DNA of 62,219 nt, filler included, from Asterionella formosa (lineage: Eukaryota): the NCBI GenBank assembly GCA_002256025.1. It is 23 parts of 23 records of this genome, joined end to end, with 100 filler letters (N's around TTAATTAATTAA, not from the genome) between each part and the next. Parts side by side here need not be neighbours in the genome. Positions count along the whole stretch, not along the records: positions 37,982 to 40,589 come from NKIB01015061.1; 22 more parts are not named here. The stretch is one strand, 5' to 3'. The translations under genes and the position numbers were made by a program. Within the stretch, counting starts at the first letter, position 1. Each line of letters begins with the position of its first letter. Shown here in pieces: positions 5,311 through 51,512 of this stretch. Below the pieces are notes generated by a model. The model did not search any database. It had not been told where the DNA came from and saw only the letters and a list, made by a program, of their open reading frames with translations.

Positions 5311-5559
5311 ACCTTTCATGAAAGGTGATTGTNNNNNNNNNNNNNNNNNNNNNNNNNNNNNNNNNNNNNNNNNNNNTTAATTAATTAANNNNNNNNNNNN
5401 NNNNNNNNNNNNNNNNNNNNNNNNNNNNNNNNATTTATTTGGGTCAAACCAAAATTTATGTGTTCTAAAACAAAATTTATTCTACTTATCTAATAATTAT
5501 GTGATCAAACCAATAATTATGTGAGTTCGCAACAATATTTTTTTCCAACTAGCCCTCAT

Positions 5560-5911
5560 TGTTGTAACAACTACCGTATTCGACCGTATTGTAGGCCTTG
5601 AACCTAGTACTGTGTTAATCGAATACAGTTGATGAAATTGATAGCAACGAAGAAGTTGTCAAACTTAAACTTTCACTTTACTAACTGGATTGTTTCGAGA
5701 TAATGGTCTCGAAACACTCTTATTACTCACACTGCATTTTAACATTTTTTCTTGACCTCTGATTGCTTTTCCTTGCGTTGTGCCTTTTACCACGTCAGCC
5801 CAGGTAACTCTTGGTAGCGGCTGTACGGTTTTAACTGTAGTACTGTACTCTCTCGTGTCTACTATACCCTTCACGCCTGTCCTGTGGCAGTCAGCTCGAA
5901 TTTTTTTAACA
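5560..5911 (-). mobile_element. Candidate 3' LTR of Copia copy 1
   Basis: On the minus strand a purine-rich GAGGAGCG precedes TGTT (5911), and the segment ends in CAACA (5560). The pol ORF runs into it. Confidence 0.55.
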
Positions 5912-8046
5912 CGCTCCTCGGCTGTTGCCAGGGAACTGGCAGTCAGGGTATCGACGTGCGCAGCTCCTAGAAGCACATTTCGGAATGTTCTGAACAGGTT
6001 TCCTTGCAGTGGTTTCGTAAAGAAATCCCCCAACATTTCCAACGTTGGACAATGGCGAATGGTGATTCCTTCATCTACCGATCGATCCTTAATCCAGAAA
6101 TAGCGGATGTTGATATGCCGAGACTTTGGCCCTGCCGAAATTCGTCCGTTCTTCTCGAGTTTAATTGCGCTCTCGTTGTCTTGTTCGAAGAAACTTTCTT
6201 GAATCTTGTATCCCTGTGCTTCAAGAAACATTTTTACCCACAGCGTGTTCGGGAGATAATCGCTGGCGCCCACAAATTCAGCCTCCGTCGAACTCTTTGT
6301 GTTCAATTTCTGCTTGGTCGACTTGCATATGATGCCTCCAGTTCCAAAAGACATCACGCCACCGGTGTGGCTCTTCATGTCAGGGTGCACGGCAAAAGCC
6401 GCATCCACCCACGACCTCATCTTGCCCATGTCGTCGGCTCCAATGGTGTATTCCACATCCATACTTCCATTTATGTATTCCAACACCCGTCGTAGCTTTT
6501 GCTGATCTTGTTTGGTGCTTTTTGACACCCTGGTGCATAGGAAACTGACCGCCAGTAGCAAATCCGCTCTTGCCCTGATCGAAACGTAAAGCAGTTTCGC
6601 CACTACACTATGGAAAATCTCGGCTTCGTTCTGGCTCAAAAAGGGAGACTCCTCATCCACTTCGAATAAACACTTCTGGGCTGGCGTGGCCACTTCCCGT
6701 GTGATTGCCATCCCTGACTTGCTCAATGCTTCCTTAAGATATTCCTTCATAGTAATGACAGCTGTGCCCTTGCCTGTGTAATGTATATGCATGCCCAGGA
6801 AAATGTGCTCTGTTCCTCTGGTGACAGTCATTTTATCAAAGCGCTCCTCGATTTTTTCGATAATTGATGTTACGACGTCCGGGTCCACATGCGAAATCTT
6901 GTTGTCGTCTACATACCACGCAATCGTGCACTGCTTCCCGTTGATTGTGCAGTTAGCAATGCAAGAGTCGTAAGGGTTTAACACAAAACCCATCTCTTTT
7001 AGGGTGTTGTGGAATAAATCATACCATAGTAGGGCAGATTTGACGCACCCATAAATCGCTTTCACTAGCCTGACGTACAACACTTTGTTTCCTTTCTCGT
7101 TGGACACAAAATTCGTGTGCTCTGGATTCATGTTGCATAATATATCGACTGATTCACCAGTGAATTTCATAACAACGAAATCATCCATATCTGCTTTCAA
7201 ATACGCACCCGCCACATCTGCTGTGGCGACATCTCTTCCTTCATGTGCATCAATCATGATGGACAACATGAGCGCATCGGTGGATACTGTTGGAGATGCC
7301 GTTTGCGACTTGTCATAAAGTGATCGCTGCGGTCTCCCGTCGGCTACTGTACGCCCCTTGAGGCGTCCGTCTCTCTTCTCTTTGATGAGATTGATGGCTC
7401 GGAGCGCTCCCGTCCTCTGTTCCCTGGTAAGGGAGTTCGCGCTTACGGGTTCGTACACATCCAGCTCCTCTAGTTGTGCAAATTCTCTCATCAGGGCGGC
7501 CTCCGCCGCTTTCCCGTGTTTCTTTATTCCCGCCTTCGCGGTCATCTGGTTCATTACATACCCAAAAATATGTTTACTTGTGTTGTCGTCTGCGTATGGC
7601 ATCGTTGTTCGAAATCCGCGTTGTACGAACTGTCTTGGTGGAAAGTATGACTTGTTGCTATGCGGTGCATCAATGGCCTGCTTGAACTGTTCACTTGTGG
7701 CTACCCGGCGTTGTCGGGGATTATGTGGTCTGTGTTCCCCTGCCAACGCTCCTTGATCTGCCACCTCGTAGTCGTTGTCAGAACCCGCTTCTTGATTGGC
7801 TTCTTCAATGGTCGCTGTCTCTTCCATAGACGCTCCTTGTTCCAAGTGCGCTCCTTGGTTTTCGTTGTTGTGTTCATGTTGTATGTAGTCATCGTAGACA
7901 AGCGTGACGTCATCAACGTCGATCGTGTTTGGGTCTCCTGGGTCCGGGTCGACTGGATTTGGCTCGACTAGCGGTGCATCGTCCAAAACCGTAGGGTGTG
8001 GCCCATCATGGAGCAGATCGGCAACTTCGTGATCATCGATGGCATC
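5665..8046 (-). CDS. Ty1/Copia (CoDi-like) pol, 5'-truncated: reverse transcriptase + RNase H, copy 1
   Basis: Motifs KGRTVADG, DVAGAYL, KAIYG, WYVDD (RT) and VDAAF, SSTEAE, QDN, RHINIRYF, GDFFTKPL (Ty1 RNase H). Frame is open to the contig end. Confidence 0.96.
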   Translation of the reverse strand, partial: DAIDDHEVADLLHDGPHPTVLDDAPLVEPNPVDPDPGDPNTIDVDDVTLVYDDYIQHEHNNENQGAHLEQGASMEETATIEEANQEAGSDNDYEVADQGALAGEHRPHNPRQRRVATSEQFKQAIDAPHSNKSYFPPRQFVQRGFRTTMPYADDNTSKHIFGYVMNQMTAKAGIKKHGKAAEAALMREFAQLEELDVYEPVSANSLTREQRTGALRAINLIKEKRDGRLKGRTVADGRPQRSLYDKSQTASPTVSTDALMLSIMIDAHEGRDVATADVAGAYLKADMDDFVVMKFTGESVDILCNMNPEHTNFVSNEKGNKVLYVRLVKAIYGCVKSALLWYDLFHNTLKEMGFVLNPYDSCIANCTINGKQCTIAWYVDDNKISHVDPDVVTSIIEKIEERFDKMTVTRGTEHIFLGMHIHYTGKGTAVITMKEYLKEALSKSGMAITREVATPAQKCLFEVDEESPFLSQNEAEIFHSVVAKLLYVSIRARADLLLAVSFLCTRVSKSTKQDQQKLRRVLEYINGSMDVEYTIGADDMGKMRSWVDAAFAVHPDMKSHTGGVMSFGTGGIICKSTKQKLNTKSSTEAEFVGASDYLPNTLWVKMFLEAQGYKIQESFFEQDNESAIKLEKNGRISAGPKSRHINIRYFWIKDRSVDEGITIRHCPTLEMLGDFFTKPLQGNLFRTFRNVLLGAAHVDTLTASSLATAEERVKKIRADCHRTGVKGIVDTREYSTTVKTVQPLPRVTWADVVKGTTQGKAIRGQEKMLKCSVSNKSVSRPLSRNNPVSKVKV

Positions 8047-8274
8047 ANNNNNNNNNNNNNNNNNNNNNNNNNNNNNNNNNNNNNNNNNNNNTTAATTAAT
8101 TAANNNNNNNNNNNNNNNNNNNNNNNNNNNNNNNNNNNNNNNNNNNNATTTATTTGGGTCAAACCAAAATTTATGTGTTCTAAAACAAAATTTATTCTAC
8201 TTATCTAATAATTATGTGATCAAACCAATAATTATGTGAGTTCGCAACAATATTTTTTTCCAACTAGCCCTCAT

Positions 8275-8626
8275 TGTTGTAACAACTACCGTATTCGACC
8301 GTATTGTAGGCCTTGAACCTAGTACTGTGTTAATCGAATACAGTTGATGAAATTGATAGCAACGAAGAAGTTGTCAAACTTAAACTTTCACTTTACTAAC
8401 TGGATTGTTTCGAGATAATGGTCTCGAAACACTCTTATTACTCACACTGCATTTTAACATTTTTTCTTGACCTCTGATTGCTTTTCCTTGCGTTGTGCCT
8501 TTTACCACGTCAGCCCAGGTAACTCTTGGTAGCGGCTGTACGGTTTTAACTGTAGTACTGTACTCTCTCGTGTCTACTATACCCTTCACGCCTGTCCTGT
8601 GGCAGTCAGCTCGAATTTTTTCAACA
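8275..8626 (-). mobile_element. Candidate 3' LTR of Copia copy 2
   Basis: Same structure as 5560-5911, with TGTTG...CAACA termini. Confidence 0.55.
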
Positions 8627-10761
8627 CGCTCCTCGGCTGTTGCCAGGGAACTGGCAGTCAGGGTATCGACGTGCGCAGCTCCTAGAAGCACATTTCGGAA
8701 TGTTCTGAACAGGTTTCCTTGCAGTGGTTTCGTAAAGAAATCCCCCAACATTTCCAACGTTGGACAATGGCGAATGGTGATTCCTTCATCTACCGATCGA
8801 TCCTTAATCCAGAAATAGCGGATGTTGATATGCCGAGACTTTGGCCCTGCCGAAATTCGTCCGTTCTTCTCGAGTTTAATTGCGCTCTCGTTGTCTTGTT
8901 CGAAGAAACTTTCTTGAATCTTGTATCCCTGTGCTTCAAGAAACATTTTTACCCACAGCGTGTTCGGGAGATAATCGCTGGCGCCCACAAATTCAGCCTC
9001 CGTCGAACTCTTTGTGTTCAATTTCTGCTTGGTCGACTTGCATATGATGCCTCCAGTTCCAAAAGACATCACGCCACCGGTGTGGCTCTTCATGTCAGGG
9101 TGCACGGCAAAAGCCGCATCCACCCACGACCTCATCTTGCCCATGTCGTCGGCTCCAATGGTGTATTCCACATCCATACTTCCATTTATGTATTCCAACA
9201 CCCGTCGTAGCTTTTGCTGATCTTGTTTGGTGCTTTTTGACACCCTGGTGCATAGGAAACTGACCGCCAGTAGCAAATCCGCTCTTGCCCTGATCGAAAC
9301 GTAAAGCAGTTTCGCCACTACACTATGGAAAATCTCGGCTTCGTTCTGGCTCAAAAAAGGAGACTCCTCATTCACTTCGAATAAAAACTTCTGGGCTGGC
9401 GTGGCCACTTCCCGTGTGATTGCCATCCCTGACTCGCTCAATGCTTCCTTAAGATATTCCTTCATAGTAATGACAGCTGTGCCCTTGCCTGTGTAATGTA
9501 TATGCATGCCCAGGAAAATGTGCTCTGTTGCTCTGGTGACAGTCATTTTATCAAAGCGCTCCTCGATTTTTTCGATAATTGATGTTACGACGTCCGGGTC
9601 CACATGCGAAATCTTGTTGTCGTCTACATACCACGCAATCGTGCACTGCTTCCCGTTGATTGTGCAGTTAGCAATGCAAGAGTCGTAAGGGTTTAACACA
9701 AAACCCATCTCTTTTAGGGTGTTGTGGAATAAATCATACCATAGTAGGGCAGATTTGACGCACCCATAAATCGCTTTCACTAGCCTGACGTACAACACTT
9801 TGTTTCCTTTCTCGTTGGACACAAAATTCGTGTGCTCTGGATTCATGTTGCATAATATATCGACTGATTCACCAGTGAATTTCATAACAACGAAATCATC
9901 CATATCTGCTTTCAAATACGCACCCGCCACATCTGCTGTGGCGACATCTCTTCCTTCATGTGCATCAATCATGATGGACAACATGAGCGCATCGGTGGAT
10001 ACTGTTGGAGATGCCGTTTGCGACTTGTCATAAAGTGATCGCTGCGGTCTCCCGTCGGCTACTGTACGCCCCTTGAGGCGTCCGTCTCTCTTCTCTTTGA
10101 TGAGATTGATGGCTCGGAGCGCTCCCGTCCTCTGTTCCCTGGTAAGGGAGTTCGCGCTTACGGGTTCGTACACATCCAGCTCCTCTAGTTGTGCAAATTC
10201 TCTCATCAGGGCGGCCTCCGCCGCTTTCCCGTGTTTCTTTATTCCCGCCTTCGCGGTCATCTGGTTCATTACATACCCAAAAATATGTTTACTTGTGTTG
10301 TCGTCTGCGTATGGCATCGTTGTTCGAAATCCGCGTTGTACGAACTGTCTTGGTGGAAAGTATGACTTGTTGCTATGCGGTGCATCAATGGCCTGCTTGA
10401 ACTGTTCACTTGTGGCTACCCGGCGTTGTCGGGGATTATGTGGTCTGTGTTCCCCTGCCAACGCTCCTTGATCTGCCACCTCGTAGTCGTTGTCAGAACC
10501 CGCTTCTTGATTGGCTTCTTCAATGGTCGCTGTCTCTTCCATAGACGCTCCTTGTTCCAAGTGCGCTCCTTGGTTTTCGTTGTTGTGTTCATGTTGTATG
10601 TAGTCATCGTAGACAAGCGTGACGTCATCAACGTCGATCGTGTTTGGGTCTCCTGGGTCCGGGTCGACTGGATTTGGCTCGACTAGCGGTGCATCGTCCA
10701 AAACCGTAGGGTGTGGCCCATCATGGAGCAGATCGGCAACTTCGTGATCATCGATGGCATC
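8380..10761 (-). CDS. Ty1/Copia (CoDi-like) pol RT-RNase H, copy 2
   Basis: Near-identical to copy 1; a few substitutions (RATEH, KFLFEVNEE, SESG, RVEK). Confidence 0.96.
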   Translation of the reverse strand, partial: DAIDDHEVADLLHDGPHPTVLDDAPLVEPNPVDPDPGDPNTIDVDDVTLVYDDYIQHEHNNENQGAHLEQGASMEETATIEEANQEAGSDNDYEVADQGALAGEHRPHNPRQRRVATSEQFKQAIDAPHSNKSYFPPRQFVQRGFRTTMPYADDNTSKHIFGYVMNQMTAKAGIKKHGKAAEAALMREFAQLEELDVYEPVSANSLTREQRTGALRAINLIKEKRDGRLKGRTVADGRPQRSLYDKSQTASPTVSTDALMLSIMIDAHEGRDVATADVAGAYLKADMDDFVVMKFTGESVDILCNMNPEHTNFVSNEKGNKVLYVRLVKAIYGCVKSALLWYDLFHNTLKEMGFVLNPYDSCIANCTINGKQCTIAWYVDDNKISHVDPDVVTSIIEKIEERFDKMTVTRATEHIFLGMHIHYTGKGTAVITMKEYLKEALSESGMAITREVATPAQKFLFEVNEESPFLSQNEAEIFHSVVAKLLYVSIRARADLLLAVSFLCTRVSKSTKQDQQKLRRVLEYINGSMDVEYTIGADDMGKMRSWVDAAFAVHPDMKSHTGGVMSFGTGGIICKSTKQKLNTKSSTEAEFVGASDYLPNTLWVKMFLEAQGYKIQESFFEQDNESAIKLEKNGRISAGPKSRHINIRYFWIKDRSVDEGITIRHCPTLEMLGDFFTKPLQGNLFRTFRNVLLGAAHVDTLTASSLATAEERVEKIRADCHRTGVKGIVDTREYSTTVKTVQPLPRVTWADVVKGTTQGKAIRGQEKMLKCSVSNKSVSRPLSRNNPVSKVKV

Positions 10762-10989
10762 ANNNNNNNNNNNNNNNNNNNNNNNNNNNNNNNNNNNNNN
10801 NNNNNNTTAATTAATTAANNNNNNNNNNNNNNNNNNNNNNNNNNNNNNNNNNNNNNNNNNNNATTTATTTGGGTCAAACCAAAATTTATGTGTTCTAAAA
10901 CAAAATTTATTCTACTTATCTAATAATTATGTGATCAAACCAATAATTATGTGAGTTCGCAACAATATTTTTTTCCAACTAGCCCTCAT

Positions 10990-11341
10990 TGTTGTAACAA
11001 CTACCGTATTCGACCGTATTGTAGGCCTTGAACCTAGTACTGTGTTAATCGAATACAGTTGATGAAATTGATAGCAACGAAGAAGTTGTCAAACTTAAAC
11101 TTTCACTTTACTAACTGGATTGTTTCGAGATAATGGTCTCGAAACACTCTTATTACTCACACTGCATTTTAACATTTTTTCTTGACCTCTGATTGCTTTT
11201 CCTTGCGTTGTGCCTTTTACCACGTCAGCCCAGGTAACTCTTGGTAGCGGCTGTACGGTTTTAACTGTAGTACTGTACTCTCTCGTGTCTACTATACCCT
11301 TCACGCCTGTCCTGTGGCAGTCAGCTCGAATTTTTTCAACA
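10990..11341 (-). mobile_element. Candidate 3' LTR of Copia copy 3
   Basis: Same structure as 5560-5911. Confidence 0.55.
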
Positions 11342-13476
11342 CGCTCCTCGGCTGTTGCCAGGGAACTGGCAGTCAGGGTATCGACGTGCGCAGCTCCTAG
11401 AAGCACATTTCGGAATGTTCTGAACAGGTTTCCTTGCAGTGGTTTCGTAAAGAAATCCCCCAACATTTCCAACGTTGGACAATGGCGAATGGTGATTCCT
11501 TCATCTACCGATCGATCCTTAATCCAGAAATAGCGGATGTTGATATGCCGAGACTTTGGCCCTGCCGAAATTCGTCCGTTCTTCTCGAGTTTAATTGCGC
11601 TCTCGTTGTCTTGTTCGAAGAAACTTTCTTGAATCTTGTATCCCTGTGCTTCAAGAAACATTTTTACCCACAGCGTGTTCGGGAGATAATCGCTGGCGCC
11701 CACAAATTCAGCCTCCGTCGAACTCTTTGTGTTCAATTTCTGCTTGGTCGACTTGCATATGATGCCTCCAGTTCCAAAAGACATCACGCCACCGGTGTGG
11801 CTCTTCATGTCAGGGTGCACGGCAAAAGCCGCATCCACCCACGACCTCATCTTGCCCATGTCGTCGGCTCCAATGGTGTATTCCACATCCATACTTCCAT
11901 TTATGTATTCCAACACCCGTCGTAGCTTTTGCTGATCTTGTTTGGTGCTTTTTGACACCCTGGTGCATAGGAAACTGACCGCCAGTAGCAAATCCGCTCT
12001 TGCCCTGATCGAAACGTAAAGCAGTTTCGCCACTACACTATGGAAAATCTCGGCTTCGTTCTGGCTCAAAAAAGGAGACTCCTCATCCACTTCGAATAAA
12101 CACTTCTGGGCTGGCGTGGCCACTTCCCGTGTGATTGCCATCCCTGACTCGCTCAATGCTTCCTTAAGATATTCCTTCATAGTAATGACAGCTGTGCCCT
12201 TGCCTGTGTAATGTATATGCATACCCAGGAAAATGTGCTCTGTTCCTCTGGTGACAGTCATTTTATCAAAGCGCTCCTCGATTTTTTCGATAATTGATGT
12301 CACGACGTCCGGGTCCACATGCGAAATCTTGTTGTCGTCTACATACCACGCAATCGTGCACTGCTTCCCGTTGATTGTGCAGTTAGCAATGCAAGAGTCG
12401 TAAGGGTTTAACACAAAACCCATCTCTTTTAGGGTGTTGTGGAATAAATCATACCATAGTAGGGCAGATTTGACGCACCCATAAATCGCTTTCACTAGCC
12501 TGACGTACAACACTTTGTTTCCTTTCTCGTTGGACACAAAATTCGTGTGCTCTGGATTCATGTTGCATAATATATCGACTGATTCACCAGTGAATTTCAT
12601 AACAACGAAATCATCCATATCTGCTTTCAAATACGCACCCGCCACATCTGCTGTGGCGACATCTCTTCCTTCATGTGCATCAATCATGATGGACAACATG
12701 AGCGCATCGGTGGATACTGTTGGAGATGCCGTTTGCGACTTGTCATAAAGTGATCGCTGTGGTCTCCCGTCGGCTACTGTACGCCCCTTGAGGCGTCCGT
12801 CTCTCTTCTCTTTGATGAGATTGATGGCTCGGAGCGCTCCCGTCCTCTGTTCCCTGGTAAGGGAGTTCGCGCTTACGGGTTCGTACACATCCAGCTCCTC
12901 TAGTTGTGCAAATTCTCTCATCAGGGCGGCCTCCGCCGCTTTCCCGTGTTTCTTTATTCCTGCCTTCGCGGTCATCTGGTTCATTACATACCCAAAAATA
13001 TGTTTACTTGTGTTGTCGTCTGCGTATGGCATCGTTGTTCGAAATCCGCGTTGTACGAACTGTCTTGGTGGAAAGTATGACTTGTTGCTATGCGGTGCAT
13101 CAATGGCCTGCTTGAACTGTTCACTTGTGGCTACCCGGCGTTGTCGGGGATTATGTGGTCTGTGTTCCCCTGCCAACGCTCCTTGATCTGCCACCTCGTA
13201 GTCGTTGTCAGAACCCGCTTCTTGATTGGCTTCTTCAATGGTCGCTGTCTCTTCCATAGACGCTCCTTGTTCCAAGTGCGCTCCTTGGTTTTCGTTGTTG
13301 TGTTCATGTTGTATGTAGTCATCGTAGACAAGCGTGACGTCATCAACGTCGATCGTGTTTGGGTCTCCTGGGTCCGGGTCGACTGGATTTGGCTCGACTA
13401 GCGGTGCATCGTCCAAAACCGTAGGGTGTGGCCCATCATGGAGCAGATCGGCAACTTCGTGATCATCGATGGCATC
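11095..13476 (-). CDS. Ty1/Copia (CoDi-like) pol RT-RNase H, copy 3
   Basis: Near-identical to copies 1 and 2, with its own silent changes. Confidence 0.96.
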   Translation of the reverse strand, partial: DAIDDHEVADLLHDGPHPTVLDDAPLVEPNPVDPDPGDPNTIDVDDVTLVYDDYIQHEHNNENQGAHLEQGASMEETATIEEANQEAGSDNDYEVADQGALAGEHRPHNPRQRRVATSEQFKQAIDAPHSNKSYFPPRQFVQRGFRTTMPYADDNTSKHIFGYVMNQMTAKAGIKKHGKAAEAALMREFAQLEELDVYEPVSANSLTREQRTGALRAINLIKEKRDGRLKGRTVADGRPQRSLYDKSQTASPTVSTDALMLSIMIDAHEGRDVATADVAGAYLKADMDDFVVMKFTGESVDILCNMNPEHTNFVSNEKGNKVLYVRLVKAIYGCVKSALLWYDLFHNTLKEMGFVLNPYDSCIANCTINGKQCTIAWYVDDNKISHVDPDVVTSIIEKIEERFDKMTVTRGTEHIFLGMHIHYTGKGTAVITMKEYLKEALSESGMAITREVATPAQKCLFEVDEESPFLSQNEAEIFHSVVAKLLYVSIRARADLLLAVSFLCTRVSKSTKQDQQKLRRVLEYINGSMDVEYTIGADDMGKMRSWVDAAFAVHPDMKSHTGGVMSFGTGGIICKSTKQKLNTKSSTEAEFVGASDYLPNTLWVKMFLEAQGYKIQESFFEQDNESAIKLEKNGRISAGPKSRHINIRYFWIKDRSVDEGITIRHCPTLEMLGDFFTKPLQGNLFRTFRNVLLGAAHVDTLTASSLATAEERVEKIRADCHRTGVKGIVDTREYSTTVKTVQPLPRVTWADVVKGTTQGKAIRGQEKMLKCSVSNKSVSRPLSRNNPVSKVKV

Positions 13477-13814
13477 ANNNNNNNNNNNNNNNNNNNNNNN
13501 NNNNNNNNNNNNNNNNNNNNNTTAATTAATTAANNNNNNNNNNNNNNNNNNNNNNNNNNNNNNNNNNNNNNNNNNNNAAGCCTCATCATACTCAATAACC
13601 CAGAAGGGCTAAAGCCAGACGATCTATTGATTCAAAGCGAATACTATAGTATGGAGATGGATGATGATGTTCATCAAATGTGCATCAGCCATGTGATTCG
13701 GGTATTTTTTGTTACATGAAAAATCATCATCCTCATCATAAAATCATTACCATCATCATCAGCCACCAGTTGAAGCATCAAGAACAAAAGTGTGACGATA
13801 AATCGGATACGACC

Positions 13815-14045
13815 AGTACCACCAGGGTACCAAAGTGCGAATGTAGCCCCAGGTACCTACCGGTAATACCGATAGCGGCTAATCCTACACACTGTTCGGT
13901 ACCAGGTACCTGGTACCCTGCAACAAACAGCAACAATCTTTTGTCCTTTTCAAGTCCAATTCACTTGCGATGCACCTCCAATTGTACCTGGTACCAGGTA
14001 CCAGGTACCCACCCAAGTATGAACTTCTCGAGTTACTGGTATCTG
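13815..14045. repeat. Cluster of TA-CCWGG / TA-CCGG modules
   Basis: ggtaccaggtacctggtaccc (~13898) and gtacctggtaccaggtaccaggtaccc (~13984), with mixed CCAGG and CCTGG orientation. Confidence 0.85.
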
Positions 14046-17175: not shown

Positions 17176-17266
17176 TTTCAACAAACTATGCATACAACGG
17201 AACGAATTAATATCCATTACATCAAACCTTTTCAAAGGTAAAAGGTTTTCCCTTGGTGTGGGAGAG

Positions 17267-17463
17267 TGAGCGATCTTGCGCATCAATACAGATGTATATA
17301 GGGTTAGTGTTATATCATATATGTATAAGAACTCAATAATGAGAGAACTCGACTAACCCTCATTGTATACTTTGGTGTCGACTTGGAGAACGAGTTACAC
17401 ACAAGGATTAACAAATAAGCTCATATATTCAACAAATACTACTACTTCTAGTTAGATACTTCA
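17267..17463 (+). mobile_element. 3' LTR (197 bp) of the Gypsy family
   Basis: TG...CA termini, preceded by the purine tract GGGAGAG. Aligns end-to-end with the reverse complement of 42057-42251. Confidence 0.9.
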
Positions 17464-17709
17464 CCTGGTACCTCGTACCGGTTTTAGTACATACTCCATA
17501 ATATCATAGTAAGTCATAACTACCGTCCAATATAATTCTCTATTTATCTACTGGTGTACATCAATGCTCCATGTCAGGTGCGTATCAGCCAGGTACCTGG
17601 TACCTGGTACCGGTACATCCAATGCATCACGTACCGACCTCAAGCTAAGTACGGTATGAACCATCAGAATCCGTCATCCGTTTTACACTGTAAAAAAGTA
17701 TTGAATGCA

Positions 17710-36351: not shown

Positions 36352-37881
36352 AGGGGCTTAAACAATTTGCTACCAAAACCCTTGCGGCATTTGAACGGTC
36401 TAAATAATTAGTTTCAACGGACGTAGAAAATATCGATGCAAACAAATTTCAGAAATAATACCGGTACAGGTAGTCGTGGAAAACAATGGACATATAGTGC
36501 ATTGAGTATTTTCGAATTATGTATATGCGAGTATGATCATCCCAACCATATCAGATGTTCCATATCGAGAGCGCCTTTGAATTTTATGAATGTATAACAC
36601 TTAATATATATCTATATATTTACAAATTTTATTACTATATTCATGGCATATATATTTTTGAAATCGTTCTGTCATGTTAACAAACAATGCCTGCTGCTTC
36701 ATGAAAAGATACAAATTTCAGAGATAATACCGGTACACGTACCGGTAGTGGTGGAAAACAATGGACATATAGTGCATTGAGTATTTTCGAATTATGTATA
36801 TGCGAGTATGATCATCTCAACCATATTTGATGTTCCATATCGAGAGCGCCTTAGAATTTTATAAAATGTATAACGCTATATATATCTATATATTTACAAA
36901 TTTTATTACTATATTCATGGCTAATAAATTTTTCAAATCGTTCTGTCATGTTAACAAACAATGCCTGCTGCTTCATGAAAAGATACGTCGTAGTAAAGCA
37001 CATGACAAGAAAAGAAAATTTTTGCAATACATAACGAAAAATATTGTGACTTTAACACATTGCGCCTTCGAAGGATGGAGAATGTTGAAGGTAATGGAGC
37101 CATCAATGTGCGTGGTACTTGGATGACAATCGTTGGGAGGCAGGCAGGCAGCACAACAACAAATTGTTAACTAAACGCAGCCACATTTCCTTTTTTCTCA
37201 GTTGATTCAACAGCTCGTTTTGCTTGTTGGGGAGCACCAATGTAAAACAAAACCAAATTGCGTAAGTGCTCTTGTCACTCGTTGGACCTATTCACTTCTT
37301 TTGGAATAAAGCTGACAAAACGTTGACCTTCTCTCAAAGTTAAGATGACAAAAATGAACCGGTAAGTTTTATTCGACAACATTGGATACCCGAAACTTAC
37401 TTATTCAAGAATTTGGCTTACTGACAAGTTACTATAACAGACTTATGCATCAGTTGCATTGATTTGTGGTAAGTGAAGCAAGAGGATACGATGGAATTGC
37501 TAGTCGTTGTTTCAATGTTACATGACTACTAGCTAACAAATCATTCCTTCTCACAATGAGGTCCGGAATGGAAGTTGTTCTGGTAAGATTACTGCGCTAT
37601 TTTGACGGCTATATGAGCAACGCTACTGATAACTCACACTGATCTTCCTCTACATTCAATTGACATTGCAGAAAACCCTTTCAATTCAGGAGCATTCGGA
37701 TGAAATCCAAAAGAACTCTGCAATACTGTTGAATGGTGAGTGTGTTCTTGTTGTGTACCTAAATGCTAGTATGGCTTGTCAGCTCACGCATTGTTGTTGA
37801 CAACAGGCAGGGACAAGGAGGTTCGGAATGAACGTTGTTCTGGTAAGATTACTGCGCTATTTTGACGGCTATATGAGCAAC
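36352..37881 (+). repeat. Dispersed repeat family copy B: ~270-nt tandem duplication and six short introns
   Basis: 36442-36710 is duplicated at 36711-36985. Donors at 37262, 37362, 37469, 37583, 37736 and 37843. Homologous to 21797-22830. Confidence 0.65.
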
Positions 37882-39553
37882 NNNNNNNNNNNNNNNNNNN
37901 NNNNNNNNNNNNNNNNNNNNNNNNNTTAATTAATTAANNNNNNNNNNNNNNNNNNNNNNNNNNNNNNNNNNNNNNNNNNNNTCTAGCTGTTCATTGGAAT
38001 TCTGAGGCAATATGTAGTTCATAGCAGGTCACATAGGCGCAAATGAATGGAAGAACTTGGTTGTGACCTTGGGAAATTCAGTAGATCATGTACATACCGT
38101 GCAGCAAGTCCAAAGCATTCAGAACTCCTTGCTGGGCTAATTTATCTTCAACATCTGCTAGCATCCTTGGTATTCAAGACATTCCAAGGAAGACCTTCAA
38201 ACTTTTTAGTCTTACTGCATGCATTCTTTGAACTCATTGCTTTGGACAATTCAAGTATATGAATTTGGAATTGGCAAGTTGATTGAACAAATTAGTCAAC
38301 CAATATTGGCAGGTGATAATTTTGAGGAGCAAATGTATTCCTATGCACCAGTCATGAAGATGAATAAAGTACTAGTCTTCCTGGTGCAATTCAGAATACT
38401 CTAAGTGTAGCGCTGCAATTGTGGTGAGCCTACCAATTGGCAGCTGAATTTACTAATAGTTTTTAGGGCTTCACCCAATTTTGGGAAATGTCCCTGTTGG
38501 CTAGTAGTGCAAGGGAGACGCTATATGCCAGTATAGTGTACCTGGATTTTGGGAGAATATAAATATTAGCCATGTTCAAGCAAAGACGAATGGGTTGTTT
38601 AAGTTTAGAGCAAACCGTCAGTGATAGTCAAGTATAGTATATAATAAACTTGAGTATCTAACACTAGTAGTAAGAATGAGCGCCAATACCACTAGTGTCT
38701 GGTGGATGACTGTCAGCAGTACCACTTTACTACAAGTTGTAAATCTCAACATTGACTGTATCTCGAACTGTTTTGGTCTGCTATGTGAGGTAATGGGGCC
38801 TAATTTACGCCAGATACAGATCTCACTTCACCTTCCATTTTGTGATCGATCATCTTATAATCACCTGGTAATTGTTGCACATTTTGACCATTGTGCCATA
38901 GTTCATTCATGATGATGAGTATGACTGATAAAGTGATGTGTTTTGGTGAGTTTTTAAAAGTATATTTGATCACATTACACATCATGATCATGCATGCCTG
39001 TGGAAAATTCGAACCCCAAAATCACTCTGTCTTCATGTGGCAATCACGATTTCGTTGTCTCAAGAAATGCTGGTGGAGTAGGCTCCTAGAAACTGTGCCA
39101 GGAAAAACTGGATTTCAATCCGGAGGGATACACTTATTTTGACTGAGAAACAAACAACTGGGAAAAATTGTTTTTCATCACTTCCTAGAAGATTTATTCT
39201 AGTGTTGTCTGATGGTGACTTGGGTATATGAAATGCCATAAATTCCCAGTATAGCCAACATGACAGCTTGAAGGGAGTGATGATGGTTGACTAAGAAGCA
39301 TACATTTATGCTGATAGTTGTATATCAAATCAATGGATCACTGTGATGCCATTGCAAGAACAACAATTGTAGTAGAATAAATGATGTCTGATGATGTACT
39401 ATACCGGTAGTGCATTTAGGACATTCTTATTACTCCTCAGTATCAGAGTCGACGAAGGAAATTTATCCAAATGTTTGAATACTACTAGTATATCCGTCCA
39501 CCTTGCTTCTTGGAATGGTTCTATCAACGTGCACAGGATCACTTATTTTCATT

Positions 39554-40162
39554 TCAATCATCATTATCATCTGCAACTGCCGCTTGCTGCACATCACTCT
39601 CAATGACAATCGTTACAGGGCCATCATTTACAAGGGCAATGTCCATCATGGCACCAAATACTCCATCATGGATCTTGTCCACCTCATATTCATTCTTAAG
39701 CATATCCAAGAACTTGTCATACCACTCCTTTGCGCCGTTCACTGACTTCATGGCTCGCTTGTAATCAGGTTGATGCTTCTTGGTCAATGTTCCGTAGAGC
39801 GTAAATTGACTCACACACAGGACCTCGAACCCTTTTTGCTTCACTCCATGGCGCCAGGCAACTGCATTCTCGTTCTCAAATAATTTGCATGCCAACAAGC
39901 GCTTACAACAGTACAGCAGGTCCGACTCCGTATCGTCTTCATGCAAACCAACCAATGCAAGTATGCCGGGGCCAATTTGTGACACGACTTTGCCCTCCAC
40001 TGTCACCGATGCTGACTTGACGCGTTGAACCACCAATCTCATGGCATCTGATATACCAAAAAGATTAAAGAATAATAAAAAGAATATAGAGACAACAAAT
40101 GATAAACAAGGACGAGAAGAAGAAAAGGAGCTGATTGGAGCAACTTCTTTTGTTAGTGTCAT
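39554..40162 (-). CDS. DTD1: D-aminoacyl-tRNA deacylase (conserved part starts at Met 40042), allele 1
   Basis: MRLVVQRV, SQFTL and NDGPVT (Gly-cisPro) signature motifs. Confidence 0.93.
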   Translation of the reverse strand: MTLTKEVAPISSFSSSRPCLSFVVSIFFLLFFNLFGISDAMRLVVQRVKSASVTVEGKVVSQIGPGILALVGLHEDDTESDLLYCCKRLLACKLFENENAVAWRHGVKQKGFEVLCVSQFTLYGTLTKKHQPDYKRAMKSVNGAKEWYDKFLDMLKNEYEVDKIHDGVFGAMMDIALVNDGPVTIVIESDVQQAAVADDNDD

Positions 40163-40372
40163 TTCTTGTCATGGTATTTTATGCACTTATGTAATAAATA
40201 CCTGTATTATGTAACGCACAGAATTTAGATAGACTGGCATTATCACCATGGTACAAAGTGCTTATGTGCCCGAAAATGTCAACTCTATATATATTTAGCC
40301 ATTATAACATAAAACTTCACCAGCCCTACATGTATGTACAGTAAAATGAACAGGAACGTGTACCAAAACTTC

Positions 40373-40589
40373 CTAGCTACCGGTAATATTATTATTTGGG
40401 TACAAGATGGGGAATAAATGAGGGGAAGAACGTCGAAGTATTTCCAGAATCTTCTTGTTTCGTTGAAATCCGAGCTCGCTGCAGAGACGGAAGGCCTGTT
40501 CTACCTCGGCGTCTTTGTTCAAACCAGCAGCAGCCAAAAAGAAGAGACCAAATGTGAACTCATCGGGGGATTTCTCCATCTTGATACGC
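40373..40589 (-). CDS. C-terminal end of a probable pentatricopeptide-repeat protein, allele 1
   Basis: PDEFTFGLFFLAAA...AFRLCSELGFQ resembles a PPR motif. Frame is open to the contig edge. Confidence 0.55.
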
Positions 40590-42017: not shown

Positions 42018-42056
42018 GTTTGTTGTCTTCTAATTCGACTCTTTTTGAATTCAAAG

Positions 42057-42251
42057 TGAAGTATCTAACTAGAAGTAGTAGTATTTATTGATTATATGAG
42101 CTTATAAAGTAATCCTTATGTACAACTCATTTCCTGAACTGACATCAAAGAATAGAATGGATGTTAGTCGGGTTCTCTCATTATTGAATTCCGATGTATT
42201 TGATATAACCCTAACTCTATATATACCTGTATCGATGTGCAGGATTGCTCA
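42057..42251 (-). mobile_element. 5' LTR (195 bp) of the Gypsy family
   Basis: TG...CA on the minus strand, homologous end-to-end to 17267-17463, directly upstream of gag. Confidence 0.9.
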
Positions 42252-42258
42252 CCTGGTA

Positions 42259-42357
42259 CCTGCAGGTCGTTGCGGTAATTGTGCTGAAACTAAAGGTTTA
42301 GCTGTCTTTATCCTATATTAATTTGTTGATTTAAGCCAAATGACTGGAACTTGCTCG
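42259..42357 (-). mobile_element. ~98-bp TA-flanked MITE, copy 1
   Basis: TA|CCTGCAGG...CTTGCTCG|TA. Reverse-complement homologue of 42371-42468. Confidence 0.75.
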
Positions 42358-42370
42358 TAGATACAAGGTA

Positions 42371-42468
42371 CCAGCAAGTTGCGGTCATTTTGCTTAAACT
42401 AACATTTTAATCTCGGATAAAGATAGCTAAATCTTTAGTTTCAGCAAAATTACCGCAAAACTTGCAGG
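42371..42468 (+). mobile_element. 98-bp TA-flanked MITE, copy 2
   Basis: TA|CCAGCAAGTTGCGGTCATTTTGCTTAAACTA...TAGTTTCAGCAAAATTACCGCAAAACTTGCAGG|TA: ~31-bp imperfect TIRs and a TA duplication typical of Tc1/mariner-type elements. Confidence 0.8.
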
Positions 42469-45740: not shown

Positions 45741-45901
45741 GGTACCTGGTACAGATATGTTACCGTACCGTTGCGGTGCCAGTTACGGGGTACCTGGTAC
45801 CAGGTACGGTAGTCTCGTCAATGTATAGACAGTTACGGGGTACCTGGTACGGTAGTCTCGTCAATGTATAGATATGTGGAGTACCAGTACCTGGTACCTG
45901 G
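45741..45901. repeat. TA-CCWGG module cluster containing a 50/43-nt tandem duplication
   Basis: 45780-45829 and 45830-45872 differ only by one CCAGGTA unit. Confidence 0.9.
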
Positions 45902-47666
45902 AAGTTCTTGCGGAAAGTTTGCTCTACTAAAGATTTAGCTTCCTTTATCCAAGATTAGATTATTGATTTAATCGAAATAACCGCGACATGCTTGTAAATA
46001 CGNNNNNNNNNNNNNNNNNNNNNNNNNNNNNNNNNNNNNNNNNNNNTTAATTAATTAANNNNNNNNNNNNNNNNNNNNNNNNNNNNNNNNNNNNNNNNNN
46101 NNTCTAGCTGTTCATTGGCATTCTGAGGCAATATGTAGTTCATAGCAGGTCACATAGGCGCAAATGAATGGAAGAACTTGGTTGTGACCTTGGGAAATTC
46201 AGTAGATCATGTACATACCGTGCAGCAAGGCCAAAGCATTCAGAACTCCTTGCTGGGCTAATTTATCTTCAACATCTGCTAGCATCCTTGGTATTCAAGA
46301 CATTCCAAGGAAGACCTTCAAACTTTTTAGTCTTACTGCATGCATTAATTGTACTCATTGCTTTGGACAATTCAAGTATATGAATTTGGTATTGGCAAGT
46401 TGATTGAACAAATTAGTCAACCAAAATTGGCAGGTGGTAATTTTGAGGAGCAAATGTATTCCTATATACCAGTCATGAAGATGAATAAAGTACTAGTCTT
46501 CCTGGTGCAATTCAGAATACTCTAAGTCTAGCGCTGCAATTGTGGTGAGCCTACCAATTGGCAGCTGAATTTACTAATAGTTTTTAGGGCTTCACCCAAT
46601 TTTGGGAAATGTCCCTGTAGGCTAGTGCAAGGGAGACGCTATATGCCAGTATATTCTACCTGGATTTTTGGATAATATAAATATTAGCCATGTTCAAGCA
46701 AAGACGAATGGGTTGTTTAAGTTTAGAGCAAATCGTCTATGATAGTCAAGTATAGTATATAATAAACTTGAGTATCTAACACTAGTAAGAATGAGCGCCA
46801 ATACCACTGGTGTCTGGTGGATGACTGTCAGCAGTACCACTTTACTACAAGTTGTAAATCTCAACATTGGCTGTATCTCGAACTGTTTTGGTCTGCTATG
46901 TGAGGTAATGAGGCCTAATTTACGCCAGATACAGATCTCACTTCACCTTCCATTTTGTGATCGATCATCTTATAATCACCTGGTAATTGTTGCACATTTT
47001 GACCATTGTGCCATAGTTCATTCATGATGATGAGTATGACTGATAAAGTGATGTGTTTTGGTGAGTTTTTTAAAAGTATATTTGATCACATTACACATCA
47101 TGATCATGCATGCATGCATGTGGAAAATTCGAACCCCAAAATCACTCTGTCTTCATGTGGCAATCACGATTTCGTTGCCTCAAGAAATGCTGGTGGAGTA
47201 GGCTCCTCGAAACTGTGCCAGGAAAAACTGGATTTCAATCCGGACACTTATTTTGACTGAGAAACAAACAACTGGGAAAAATTGTTTTTCATCACTTCCT
47301 ACAAGATTTATTCCAGTGTTGTCTGATGGTGACTTGGGTATATGAAATGCCATAAATTCCCAGTATAGCCAACATGACAGCTTGAAGGGAGTGATGATGG
47401 TTGACTAAGAAGCATACATATATGCTGATAGTTGTATATCAAATCAATGGATCACTGTGATGCCATAGCAAGAACAACAATTGTAGTAGAATAAATGATG
47501 TCTGATGATGTATGTACCGGTAGTGCATTTAGGACATTCTTATTACTCCTCAGTATCAGAGTCGACGAAGGAAATTTATCCAAATGTTTGAATACTGCTA
47601 GTATATCCGTCCACATTGCTTCTTAGAATGGTTCTATCAACGTGCAAAGGATCACTTATTTTCATT

Positions 47667-48275
47667 TTAATCATCATTGTCATCTGCAACTGCCGCTTGC
47701 TGCACATCACTCTCAATGACAATCGTTACAGGGCCATCATTTACAAGGGCAATGTCCATCATGGCACCAAATACTCCATCATGGATCTTGTCCACCTCAT
47801 ATTCAATCTTAAGCATATCCAAGAACTTGTCATACCACTCCTTTGCGCCGTTCACTGACTTCATTGCTCGCTTGTAATCAGGTTGATGCTTCTTGGTCAA
47901 TGTTCCGTAGAGCGTAAATTGACTCACACACAGGACCTCGAACCCTTTTTGCTTCACTCCATGGCGCCAGGCAACTGCATTCTCGTTCTCAAATAATTTG
48001 CATGCCAACAAGCGCTTACAACAGTACAGCAGGTCCGACTCAGTATCGTCTTCATGCAAACCAACCAATGCAAGTATGCCGGGGCCAATTTGTGACACGA
48101 CTTTGCCCTCCACTGTCACCGATGCTGACTTGACGCGTTGAACCACCAATCTCATGGCATCTGATATAGCAAAAAGATTAAAGAATAATAAAAAGAAAAT
48201 AGAGACAACAAATGATAAACAAGGACGAGAAGAAGAAAAGGAGCTGATTGGAGCAACTTCTTTTGTTAGTCTCAT
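47667..48275 (-). CDS. DTD1: D-aminoacyl-tRNA deacylase (conserved part starts at Met 48155), allele 2
   Basis: Near-identical to 39554..40162; the whole contig mirrors 37982-40589. Confidence 0.93.
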   Translation of the reverse strand: MRLTKEVAPISSFSSSRPCLSFVVSIFFLLFFNLFAISDAMRLVVQRVKSASVTVEGKVVSQIGPGILALVGLHEDDTESDLLYCCKRLLACKLFENENAVAWRHGVKQKGFEVLCVSQFTLYGTLTKKHQPDYKRAMKSVNGAKEWYDKFLDMLKIEYEVDKIHDGVFGAMMDIALVNDGPVTIVIESDVQQAAVADDNDD

Positions 48276-48496
48276 TTCTTGTCATGGTATTTTATGCACT
48301 TACCCGGTATATAATAAATACCGGCATTATGTTCCGTTTACCGGTATTTATCATCAAACGCACAGAATTTAGATAGACTGGGATTGATGTGCCCGAAAAT
48401 GTCAACTCTATATATATTTAGCCATTATAACATAAAACTTCACCAGCCCTATTTGTATGTACTGTAAAATGAACAGGAACGTGTACCAAAAACATC

Positions 48497-48707
48497 CTAG
48501 CTAATTTTATTATTTGGGTACAAGATTGGGAATAAATGAGGGGAAGAACGTCGAAGTATTTCCAGAATCTTCTTGTTTCCTTGAAATCCGAGCTCGCTGC
48601 AGAGACGGAAGGCCTGTTCTACCTCGGCGTCTTTGTTCAAACCAGCAGCAGCCAAAAAGAAGAGACCAAATGTGAACTCATCGGGGGATTTCTCCATCTT
48701 GATACGC
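48497..48707 (-). CDS. C-terminal end of probable PPR protein, allele 2
   Basis: Near-identical to 40373..40589 but two codons shorter. Confidence 0.55.
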
Positions 48708-49410: not shown

Positions 49411-49517
49411 CTACCTGGTACCTGGTACCCTGGTACCGGTAGTACCTGATCGTAACAGCCACTCCAGGGTAACGGTACCTGGTACCTGGTACCTGGTACC
49501 AGGGTAAACCTGGTACC
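49411..49517. repeat. Dense TA-CCWGG module cluster
   Basis: tacctggtacctggtaccctggtaccggtagta and ggtacctggtacctggtacctggtaccagggta. Confidence 0.9.
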
Positions 49518-50112: not shown

Positions 50113-51512
50113 CGGAGTTCGGAAAGGATTAGGCACGCTTGTTTGGATCGATTAGCCATAATATGGATGTTTTGGATGGTCTCTCGCCGTACATATAAAA
50201 CTCAGGCTGCGAAAATAAACCTGAAAAAACAGAAAATTATCACCGGGTCATTTTCGAGACAGAACTTTCTTCCATCATGAGAGTGCTGATTATTCATTGA
50301 ATCTGTTTGCCTATGTGGTTCGTTGGCAAGCCTTTGTATAGTTTGGATACAGTGACTACCAGTGGTCTAACTAGCTTAATGTATAGACCTCATGCAGGCT
50401 TAAAGCAATATATAGTCGCAACTAAAATATATATCTCCTGCCACCTAGCTCATTAACGGACTTTAGGAGTACACAGCACTGGTGCCTGCCTCCGTTTTGC
50501 TCACAGTCTATCATGTCAATGATAATTAAGATATTTGTTTCGATAGGCTGACTAAATATGTATAGCCTTTACTTCAAATGAGGAGGACACATAAATATTC
50601 TCAAAATTAGTACATTATATGCAGCCGACAAGCAAATAAGGCTCCTAATAAAGGCGGTTTGTTGCTAGGGAAAGGATGGCTAAATACCATCTCAACTAAA
50701 GACTTCCCGGGTTATTGTATCCATCAATATATGGATGGCTGGCTACCTGGTAACGGTTAGTAGGGGTACCGGTACGCTACATACATACCTATACATACAA
50801 TCCCAGTACTGGTACCTGGTACCACTTAAAAACTGTAAACCACCGCTGCTACGGCGACTTTTGAACTGTAAGCCACCGCTAAACGGAGTAAACGCACGAT
50901 TTGAACTTAGTTTACAAGATACGCTATTTATTGTGACGAACGAGTTATTCAGATTTATATACCGAGTAAATACTTCCGTACTTGTATTGTTGCATTGTGT
51001 ACATAGTTAATTAGGTATTATCGACCAAAGGTTGCTGTCGACGTGAAATTGCGCAAATTGGATATTTTCACGTTTACTCGATTGAGCAAGCATCACCTTT
51101 TATATACGTATCCAGCTATTAGAATATTCCTCCGCTAGAAACCTAATTTAGTATCCTCTAAAATTTATTTAATATGGCTACAATGTCATTGTGCTTTCGC
51201 TCGTGTGCCATAATAAAGAGATAGATTCAGTAATGGAAAACGTCAAATAGGAATTCTTGGCGCGCCCGAATTATGAGTACAAAATTAAATGCAAACACAA
51301 CAATCACCCATCACAATACCAACATCATGACCTCGAAAACGCCTCGACAAGGCAATGCCTTGCCTCGAAAGAAATTGTCTCCTGAAGAGTTGGTCAGTGT
51401 TCAGATTTGTCNNNNNNNNNNNNNNNNNNNNNNNNNNNNNNNNNNNNNNNNNNNNTTAATTAATTAANNNNNNNNNNNNNNNNNNNNNNNNNNNNNNNNN
51501 NNNNNNNNNNNT

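Follow-up and report, generated by a model that had tools for sequence, protein, structure and literature searches.

The site at 40378 and its allele-like counterpart

The window analysed here is a stretch of 62,219 nucleotides from Asterionella formosa (assembly GCA_002256025.1), made of 23 separate contigs of 2,601–2,617 bases each; the N44-TTAATTAATTAA-N44 blocks within it (2618–2717, then every 2.7 kb) are joining spacers and non-genomic. The genome assembly comprises 68.4 Mb in 15,436 contigs and carries both haplotypes in places. At 40378 the word TACCGGTA lies at the 3′ end of a reading frame for a PPR protein, on a piece that also carries a D-Tyr-tRNA deacylase gene (Table 1). This piece (37982–40589, C15061) aligns end to end with another (46103–48707, C15065), with 2514 matches, 54 mismatches and 11 indels, and the two are allele-like copies in a context that is single-copy. 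GC-TACCGGTA-AT at 40378–40385 reads GC-TA-AT at 48502, so that the six letters TA[CCGGTA] at 40380–40385 are missing from the counterpart and no adjacent template is present, as the first-pass annotation of this DNA had described.

Contigs from four sequencing runs (X2, X4, X7 and X9) of four studies were aligned to the 40378 piece. Contigs without the 6 bp came from X2, X7 and X9; X2 and X9 also gave contigs that carry them. X4, where cover was low, had no indel among the matches listed. Because the 6 bp are both present and missing among contigs of independent runs, the allele is not an assembly artefact; it is a natural segregating insertion that is also found in independent lake samples. 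The runs holding window sequence were mostly freshwater metagenomes. A metagenome scan with the deacylase gene returned 11 loci at 36–73% identity, whose flanks were too distant to align and from which the module words were absent.

The insertion adds an in-frame Thr-Gly just before the last codon of the PPR-protein frame, a call that follows the reading frame as read. One copy ends in NNNITGS-stop and the other in NNKIS-stop, and the frame continues on C13626. Elsewhere in the allele pair (48322–48356), a 24-bp insertion in one allele holds an inverted copy of 11 bases just upstream and would appear to be a templated fold-back insertion.

Three further paired indels had been reported in the window, and on rechecking the alignments all four proved to be real. 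CT-TACCCGGTA-TA at 48301–48309 faces CT-TA-TG at 40188, where TA[CCCGGTA] (48303–48309) is missing. At 40188, gap-free X2 and X4 contigs are empty yet bear the filled copy's neighbouring letter at 40191 (among the matches listed), a weak sign that the empty state is the older one. The [CCGGTA] at 36742–36747 is missing from its tandem duplicate, as had been stated; that duplicate, at 36471, has G where the filled copy (36740–36747) has C, and the difference could therefore be a deletion, but paralogue C12593 supplies a clean empty state, CACG-TA-GTC. A further TACCGGTA lies 12 nt upstream of 36740–36747. Finally, [CCAGGTA] at 45800–45806 is indeed missing from the duplicate at 45848, a comparison of two copies only in which polarity is not decidable.

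Table 1. Features of the window discussed in the text (positions along the window; "scar" denotes the probable origin argued below)
Feature	Position	Strand	Basis
Probable scar allele, TACCGGTA (TA + CCGG + TA)	40378..40385	.	alignment + segregation among runs
Empty TA, allele-like counterpart of 40378	48502..48503	.	alignment
PPR-protein reading frame, 3′ end	40373..40589	-	PF13041, E 8.5e-20, on overlapping contig C13626
D-Tyr-tRNA deacylase gene	39554..40042	-	PF02580, E 2.1e-47
Probable scar allele, TACCCGGTA	48301..48309	.	alignment
Empty TA, counterpart of 48301	40188..40189	.	alignment
TACCGGTA in second tandem duplicate	36740..36747	.	paralogues: empty in C12593, filled in C15403
Two-unit array; duplicate at 45841-45849 has one unit	45791..45806	.	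alignment
Two-unit CCWGG array	13900..13915	.	sequence
Three-unit CCWGG array	13985..14007	.	sequence
Array CCTGG, CCTGG, CCGG	17594..17615	.	same in 98% copy C14368
Four-unit mixed array (CCTGG, CCTGG, CCCTGG, CCGG)	49412..49441	.	sequence
CCTGG unit directly adjoining family E element	50813..50821	.	sequence
Family E element end, CCA terminus, TA target, cut by contig end	50822..51411	+	end match
197-bp LTR of retroelement, then five-base flank CCTGG and TAC	42056..42252	+	junction reading
Family F miniature inverted-repeat element(s) in GG-TA-CC sites	42259..42468	.	CCT/CCA...AGG ends

Census and polarity of small indels

We carried out a census of small indels in 226 loci (783,831 bases, search-picked and repeat-rich) together with the window pieces, all compared against all. 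Alignments of at least 200 bases with 85% to <100% identity and clean flanks were retained and duplicates were merged; the flank filter removed the 40378 site itself. The census gave 499 distinct indel sites. TA[CCGGTA] made up 10 of the 31 six-base sites, or 8/31 under a stricter classing in which CCGG cores occurred only at TA (8/8), and other indels of the form TA[xxxxTA] accounted for only 2 of the 31. TA[CCNGGTA] made up 3 of the 9 seven-base sites, and the 17 five-base sites included one each of TA[CCGTA], TA[TGGTA] and TA[AGGTA], which are textbook three-base forms with the same ends. The predicted enrichment of changes from TA to TA-CC(N)GG-TA was thus found in both size classes.

Modules were gained at single TA sites. 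The module is the minority state at five of the six multi-copy sites, carried by one or two copies, and the counts of carriers against empty distinct copies are 1 v 5, 1 v 13 (1 v 16 when counted by contigs), 1 v 12, 1 v 6 (where a second, decayed carrier is also present) and 1 v 19. Additional gains were seen in one of six copies at L274 and also at L269. The sixth multi-copy site is reversed, with the module in most copies of an element family described below (family B) and the most divergent copy without it. The view that these indels are insertions therefore stands for five of six sites, as judged from copies within this genome, and the remaining site points in the opposite direction.

A commoner sibling series of indels was also observed, in which a dinucleotide of any kind, most frequently TA, is duplicated around G, C or GC (XY+G/C/GC+XY; window examples at 38502 and 38665). 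Among non-tandem indels that duplicate two bases, the middle was G or C in 54 of 60 with three bases and GC in 36 of 41 with four. To go by its letters, this series resembles what excision of an element with G...C ends and a duplication of two bases would leave behind, and no source was found among the elements examined. Hairpin-type (CACTA) footprints for the 3–4 bp insertions were dropped as an idea because G/C stands in the middle regardless of the flank. Family G (L238–L257) has 335 exact ends starting with GC, with a purine before the end in all 22 that were read, and it was not accepted as the source because two end pairs have no target duplication. The CC...GG series and the XY-G/C/GC-XY series account for at least 103 of the 499 indel sites.

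Abundance of the module words

Exact counts across the genome gave 28,528 copies of TACCGGTA and 26,886 of TACCWGGTA, against 1,718 and 902 for the respective reversed words, a control that does not keep dinucleotide content; TACCSGGTA occurs 2,562 times against 517. The textbook three-base form TACSGTA, with 9,453 copies, falls below its reversed word (15,671) and is rarer than TACCGGTA. Measured against dinucleotide expectation in twenty 10-kb stretches from large contigs (200 kb), TACCGGTA was 84-fold and TACCAGGTA 60-fold in excess, TACCGTA reached 2.9-fold, and TACCGCGGTA was absent from this sample. The window itself holds 22 TACCGGTA and 25 TACCWGGTA, where dinucleotides predict 0.29 and 0.26. 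The genome-wide excess comes to ~55,000 sites, although the haploid number is lower since both haplotypes are assembled in places, and the assembly has roughly one module word per 1.2 kb. Long reading frames are poor in them: ORFs of at least 200 aa cover 41% of the sample and hold 4/70 and 1/47 of the words.

Resident elements that target TA

Searches of the genome gave 93 DDE_1 matches, and DDE_3 (Tc1-type) was found in 0 of 16 candidates. Family B is a 2.46-kb element with 0.8–1.4-kb derivatives, TA|CCG ends and short TIRs, and its intact 421-aa frame matches DDE_1 (PF03184, E 1e-21) with a DD35D spacing read from sequence. Ten copies are 99.0–100% alike, 89 exact ends were found, and its TA duplication was seen against empty paralogues at 5/5, 11/11 and 6/6. 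The DDE_1 transposase, DDxD triad, TIRs and TA duplication place family B in the pogo superfamily. It also has a 145-aa frame on the opposite strand (L048:1848–2285, +) with no Pfam match. Searching phages with the family B transposase gave no match, a result that carries no information. Family D is another pogo family with TA|CCG ends, and family A has TA|CAG ends. The TA occupied by a family A element at L005:297 is followed by CAG, and that occupied by a family B element at L142/L137 by CCG; in each case these bases resemble the element's own end.

Family E has TA|CCA ends and TIRs, with 267 exact ends that belong mostly to 740-bp miniature copies, and its TA duplication is seen as TA[E]TA in filled sites against an empty TA in paralogues. 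Those long copies that were read are broken. Its protein has 244 relatives, and the triad D241, D390 and D428 is invariant in 43 homologues and spaced DD37D. The protein has no Pfam match, a profile comparison with family B gave nothing, and the best fold match was Mos1 (prob 0.99, with a weak E-value of 6e-3). On this weak fold match, family E may be a Mos1-fold DD37D family of the ITm group. One transposase has Fragilaria crotonensis proteins as its only named relatives. Family F is a small miniature inverted-repeat element with CCT/CCA...AGG ends. A permissive scan for inverted repeats yielded mostly noise.

Arrays and sites shared with elements

Six GGTACC-rich arrays had been named in the window. 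Four of them are arrays, whereas that at 45741 is a single unit and that at 50808 is one full unit followed by a family E end. Arrays have a period of seven bases, and CCGG units make up 24 of about 208 units. Neighbouring units (A/T) were the same in 39 cases and different in 35, which is random and therefore points to independent events and not to slippage, in agreement with the earlier argument from the mixing of CCAGG with CCTGG.

G precedes TA at 26/29 family E ends and at 24/46 isolated TACCWGGTA (background 0.25, p 7e-5). For TACCGGTA the count is 29/140, similar to family B ends (12/38, p 0.19) and unlike family E (p 2e-12). C precedes TA at 49/140 TACCGGTA against 0.19, and at 10/38 family B ends, a number that neither clearly shows nor excludes the same C bias. 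Family E ends lie inside a module in 15/29 cases, against 163/1562 for random GTAC (p 3e-8).

Comparison of paralogues caught several of these sites in different states. C1207 reads TA-CCTGG-TA-[E]-TA-CGG-TA where paralogues have one TA, and the units were present in 0/15 fetched paralogues. At the C57 TA one copy is filled by family E, and of 12 fetched paralogues 9 are empty, 2 are uninformative and 1 (C13468) carries TACCGGTA. C13468 and the filled copy fall in different subgroups, so the scar in C13468 is a parallel event, and the site combines a CCA-ended element with a scar of the CCGG form. At a third place, C5148 has a four-unit array containing a copy of family E, C11400 carries three different units without an element, and C10085 lacks an array. 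Empty, filled and footprint states, which the first-pass annotation had expected to coexist, thus all occur at one TA among paralogues; as an allele pair of one locus, filled and scar states were not found in 10 flank searches (C164 is single-copy, C1812 paralogues stop 75 bases short and C1171 matches 8 short, the C8286 partner is also filled, and 22 paralogues of three family B sites are all empty). The proposal that arrays record repeated insertion and excision at hotspots is supported at C1207, where one ancestral TA became two scars plus a family E copy, and can be refined in that the hotspot is family E's preference for G-TA-C.

Origin of the modules

We consider the modules very probably to be repair scars of excised TA-targeting DNA transposons of the IS630-Tc1-mariner type. 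A duplicated TA surrounds bases that match the termini of resident elements, and the modules are gained relative to an empty TA. The canonical three-base form is not the main product here; it is typical of Sleeping Beauty and is not required of the group. Enrichment, gains and matching element ends all favour the genome-wide transposon footprint first suggested for these words, with the refinement that two or more groups of elements take part, CCG ends for CCGG/CCSGG and CCA or CCT ends for CCWGG. Against this origin weigh the failure to find a filled/scar allele pair in 10 flank searches, the reversed multi-copy site, the low count of TACSGTA, the C bias before TACCGGTA, the sibling series for which no source was found, the weak fold match of family E, and the disproportion between the ~55,000 excess sites and a few hundred exact element ends, the E copies read being broken.

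We propose that, after staggered cuts at excision, each flank would keep three terminal bases of the element as a 3′ overhang. Two CCG overhangs could then pair through CG, producing TA-CCGG-TA, or overlap at a single mismatched position, producing TA-CCSGG-TA, and CCA or CCT overhangs with one A:A (T:T) mismatch would yield TA-CCAGG-TA or TA-CCTGG-TA at random. A CCWGG scar in GTAC would read GTAC-CWG-GTAC, which holds two family E targets, so each E cycle would make new ones. Through E's preference for G-TA-C, and the two such sites that follow from a scar in GTAC, seven-base arrays would grow unit by unit, and scars would accumulate as a result of one element family preferentially inserting into old ones. 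The mutation rate of a diatom is about 5e-10 per site per generation, and if an 8-mer decays at 8x this rate, 28,500 sites would need ~1e-4 new scars per genome per generation, which is plausible.

The same footprints could also be made from two-base CC overhangs joined end to end, with the middle A/T of CCWGG as an untemplated repair addition, and this would be a sub-case of the transposon-scar explanation and not its exclusive alternative. It would fit TACCGGTA as the commonest form, its presence at a TA that family E fills in a paralogue, and the CCGG units inside arrays, but the flanks differ, in that TACCWGGTA follows E's G-TA-C and TACCGGTA does not, and three-base indels TA[CCG]TA and TA[TGG]TA exist; we regard it as rather unlikely. 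Break repair independent of transposons, in which a two-base duplication with G/C addition would give both TA-CCGG-TA and XY-G/C/GC-XY, draws on the G/C middles of the sibling series at many dinucleotides and on the failure to find that series a source among the elements examined. It seems improbable given that CCGG cores occur only at TA, that the cores are letter-for-letter the same as resident element ends, that flank preference tracks family E and that elements are located inside the arrays.

Slippage, or hairpin-driven template switching, that expands GGTACC units has in its favour the seven-base period, the similar word near the 36740 and 45798 sites and the inverted templated insertion at 48333. 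New units do not copy their neighbours, however, the flanks of most CCGG gains offer no template, and arrays occur where paralogues have one TA. Slippage is largely refuted for single gains and as a general account very improbable, and it may add some array units. Selection of the words as motifs for transcription factors or chromatin, a role suggested for TACATGTA and TACCGGTA in Phytophthora, is to us the most doubtful explanation; it would agree with their avoidance of long ORFs and with the naming of such words as candidate binding sites in PMC3520976 and PMC3597505, yet the words arise in one step as whole insertions, also within transposon and LTR copies, and selection leaves their origin unexplained. 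Later use of scars as binding sites is not excluded.

Comparison with known systems

According to 10.1101/659086, ITm transposases make a staggered cut that leaves 2–3 terminal bases, giving TA-flanked footprints with an ambiguous middle base. The modules resemble those of Sleeping Beauty, Tc1 and Mos1 as described there, in that TA, terminal bases and TA follow one another and the middle base goes two ways (TACAGTA/TACTGTA). They differ in that the forms prevailing here (CCGG, CCWGG) retain bases of both ends and are commoner than the three-base form, and in that tens of thousands of them are present as standing variation, whereas those systems were followed in assays. Family B resembles pogo elements (Passer, Fot-like) in its DDE_1 domain, DD35D, short TIRs and TA duplication (PMC7386202, PMC9976928), and the latter paper gives footprints of 0–4 bp for Passer (pogo, DD35D). 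Family E differs from pogo in its DD37D spacing, in matching neither Pfam nor the family B profile, and in its strong G-TA-C preference.

The Phytophthora words, motif-1/M93 (TACATGTA) and M94 (TACCGGTA), are palindromes of the same TA-NNNN-TA form and abound in the non-coding DNA of that genus, also a stramenopile (PMC3520976, PMC3597505). PMC3520976 names a Tc1 footprint as an origin for its motif and rejects it because the motif is abundant. In contrast, the insertion origin is seen directly here, in this alga alone. Given that the words occur at about one per 1.2 kb in A. formosa and are caught as segregating insertions, stramenopile motif catalogues may include transposon scars.

In the open-licence literature, we found no report of such scars in diatoms or of genome-wide footprint words. 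Excision footprints are a known kind of event; what is new is their density, the both-end forms, arrays that regenerate their targets and an unclassified family with DD37D spacing. Such footprints are commonly regarded as rare. Read as scars, the modules document much more transposition in the past than the copies still present would suggest. They also reveal the way in which diatoms join ends that do not match, and can alter proteins in frame, as in the PPR tail at 40378. It is possible, and we put it forward as a tentative extension that may well not hold, that scars are a main source of the small insertions seen here, that a self-feeding loop of family E builds arrays that also attract an LTR element, and that the TACATGTA and TACCGGTA motifs of Phytophthora and other genomes arose likewise.

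Retroelements in the window

Copies of the element with the 197-bp LTR were found in the window at 42056–42257 and 17266–17464, and at L135–L152, L221 and L223. The LTR flank is five bases followed by TAC in 11 of the 12 junctions listed, mostly CCWGG-TAC, and one junction is the internal LTR side. Both flanks are CCAGG at C13845 and CCTGG at C2172. From these junctions, the element seems to target GTAC-N3-GTAC, i.e. the arrays themselves. In another part of the window (5433–13477), the same 2,615 bases (99.7%) are present on three separate contigs and look by eye like a copia-type retroelement.
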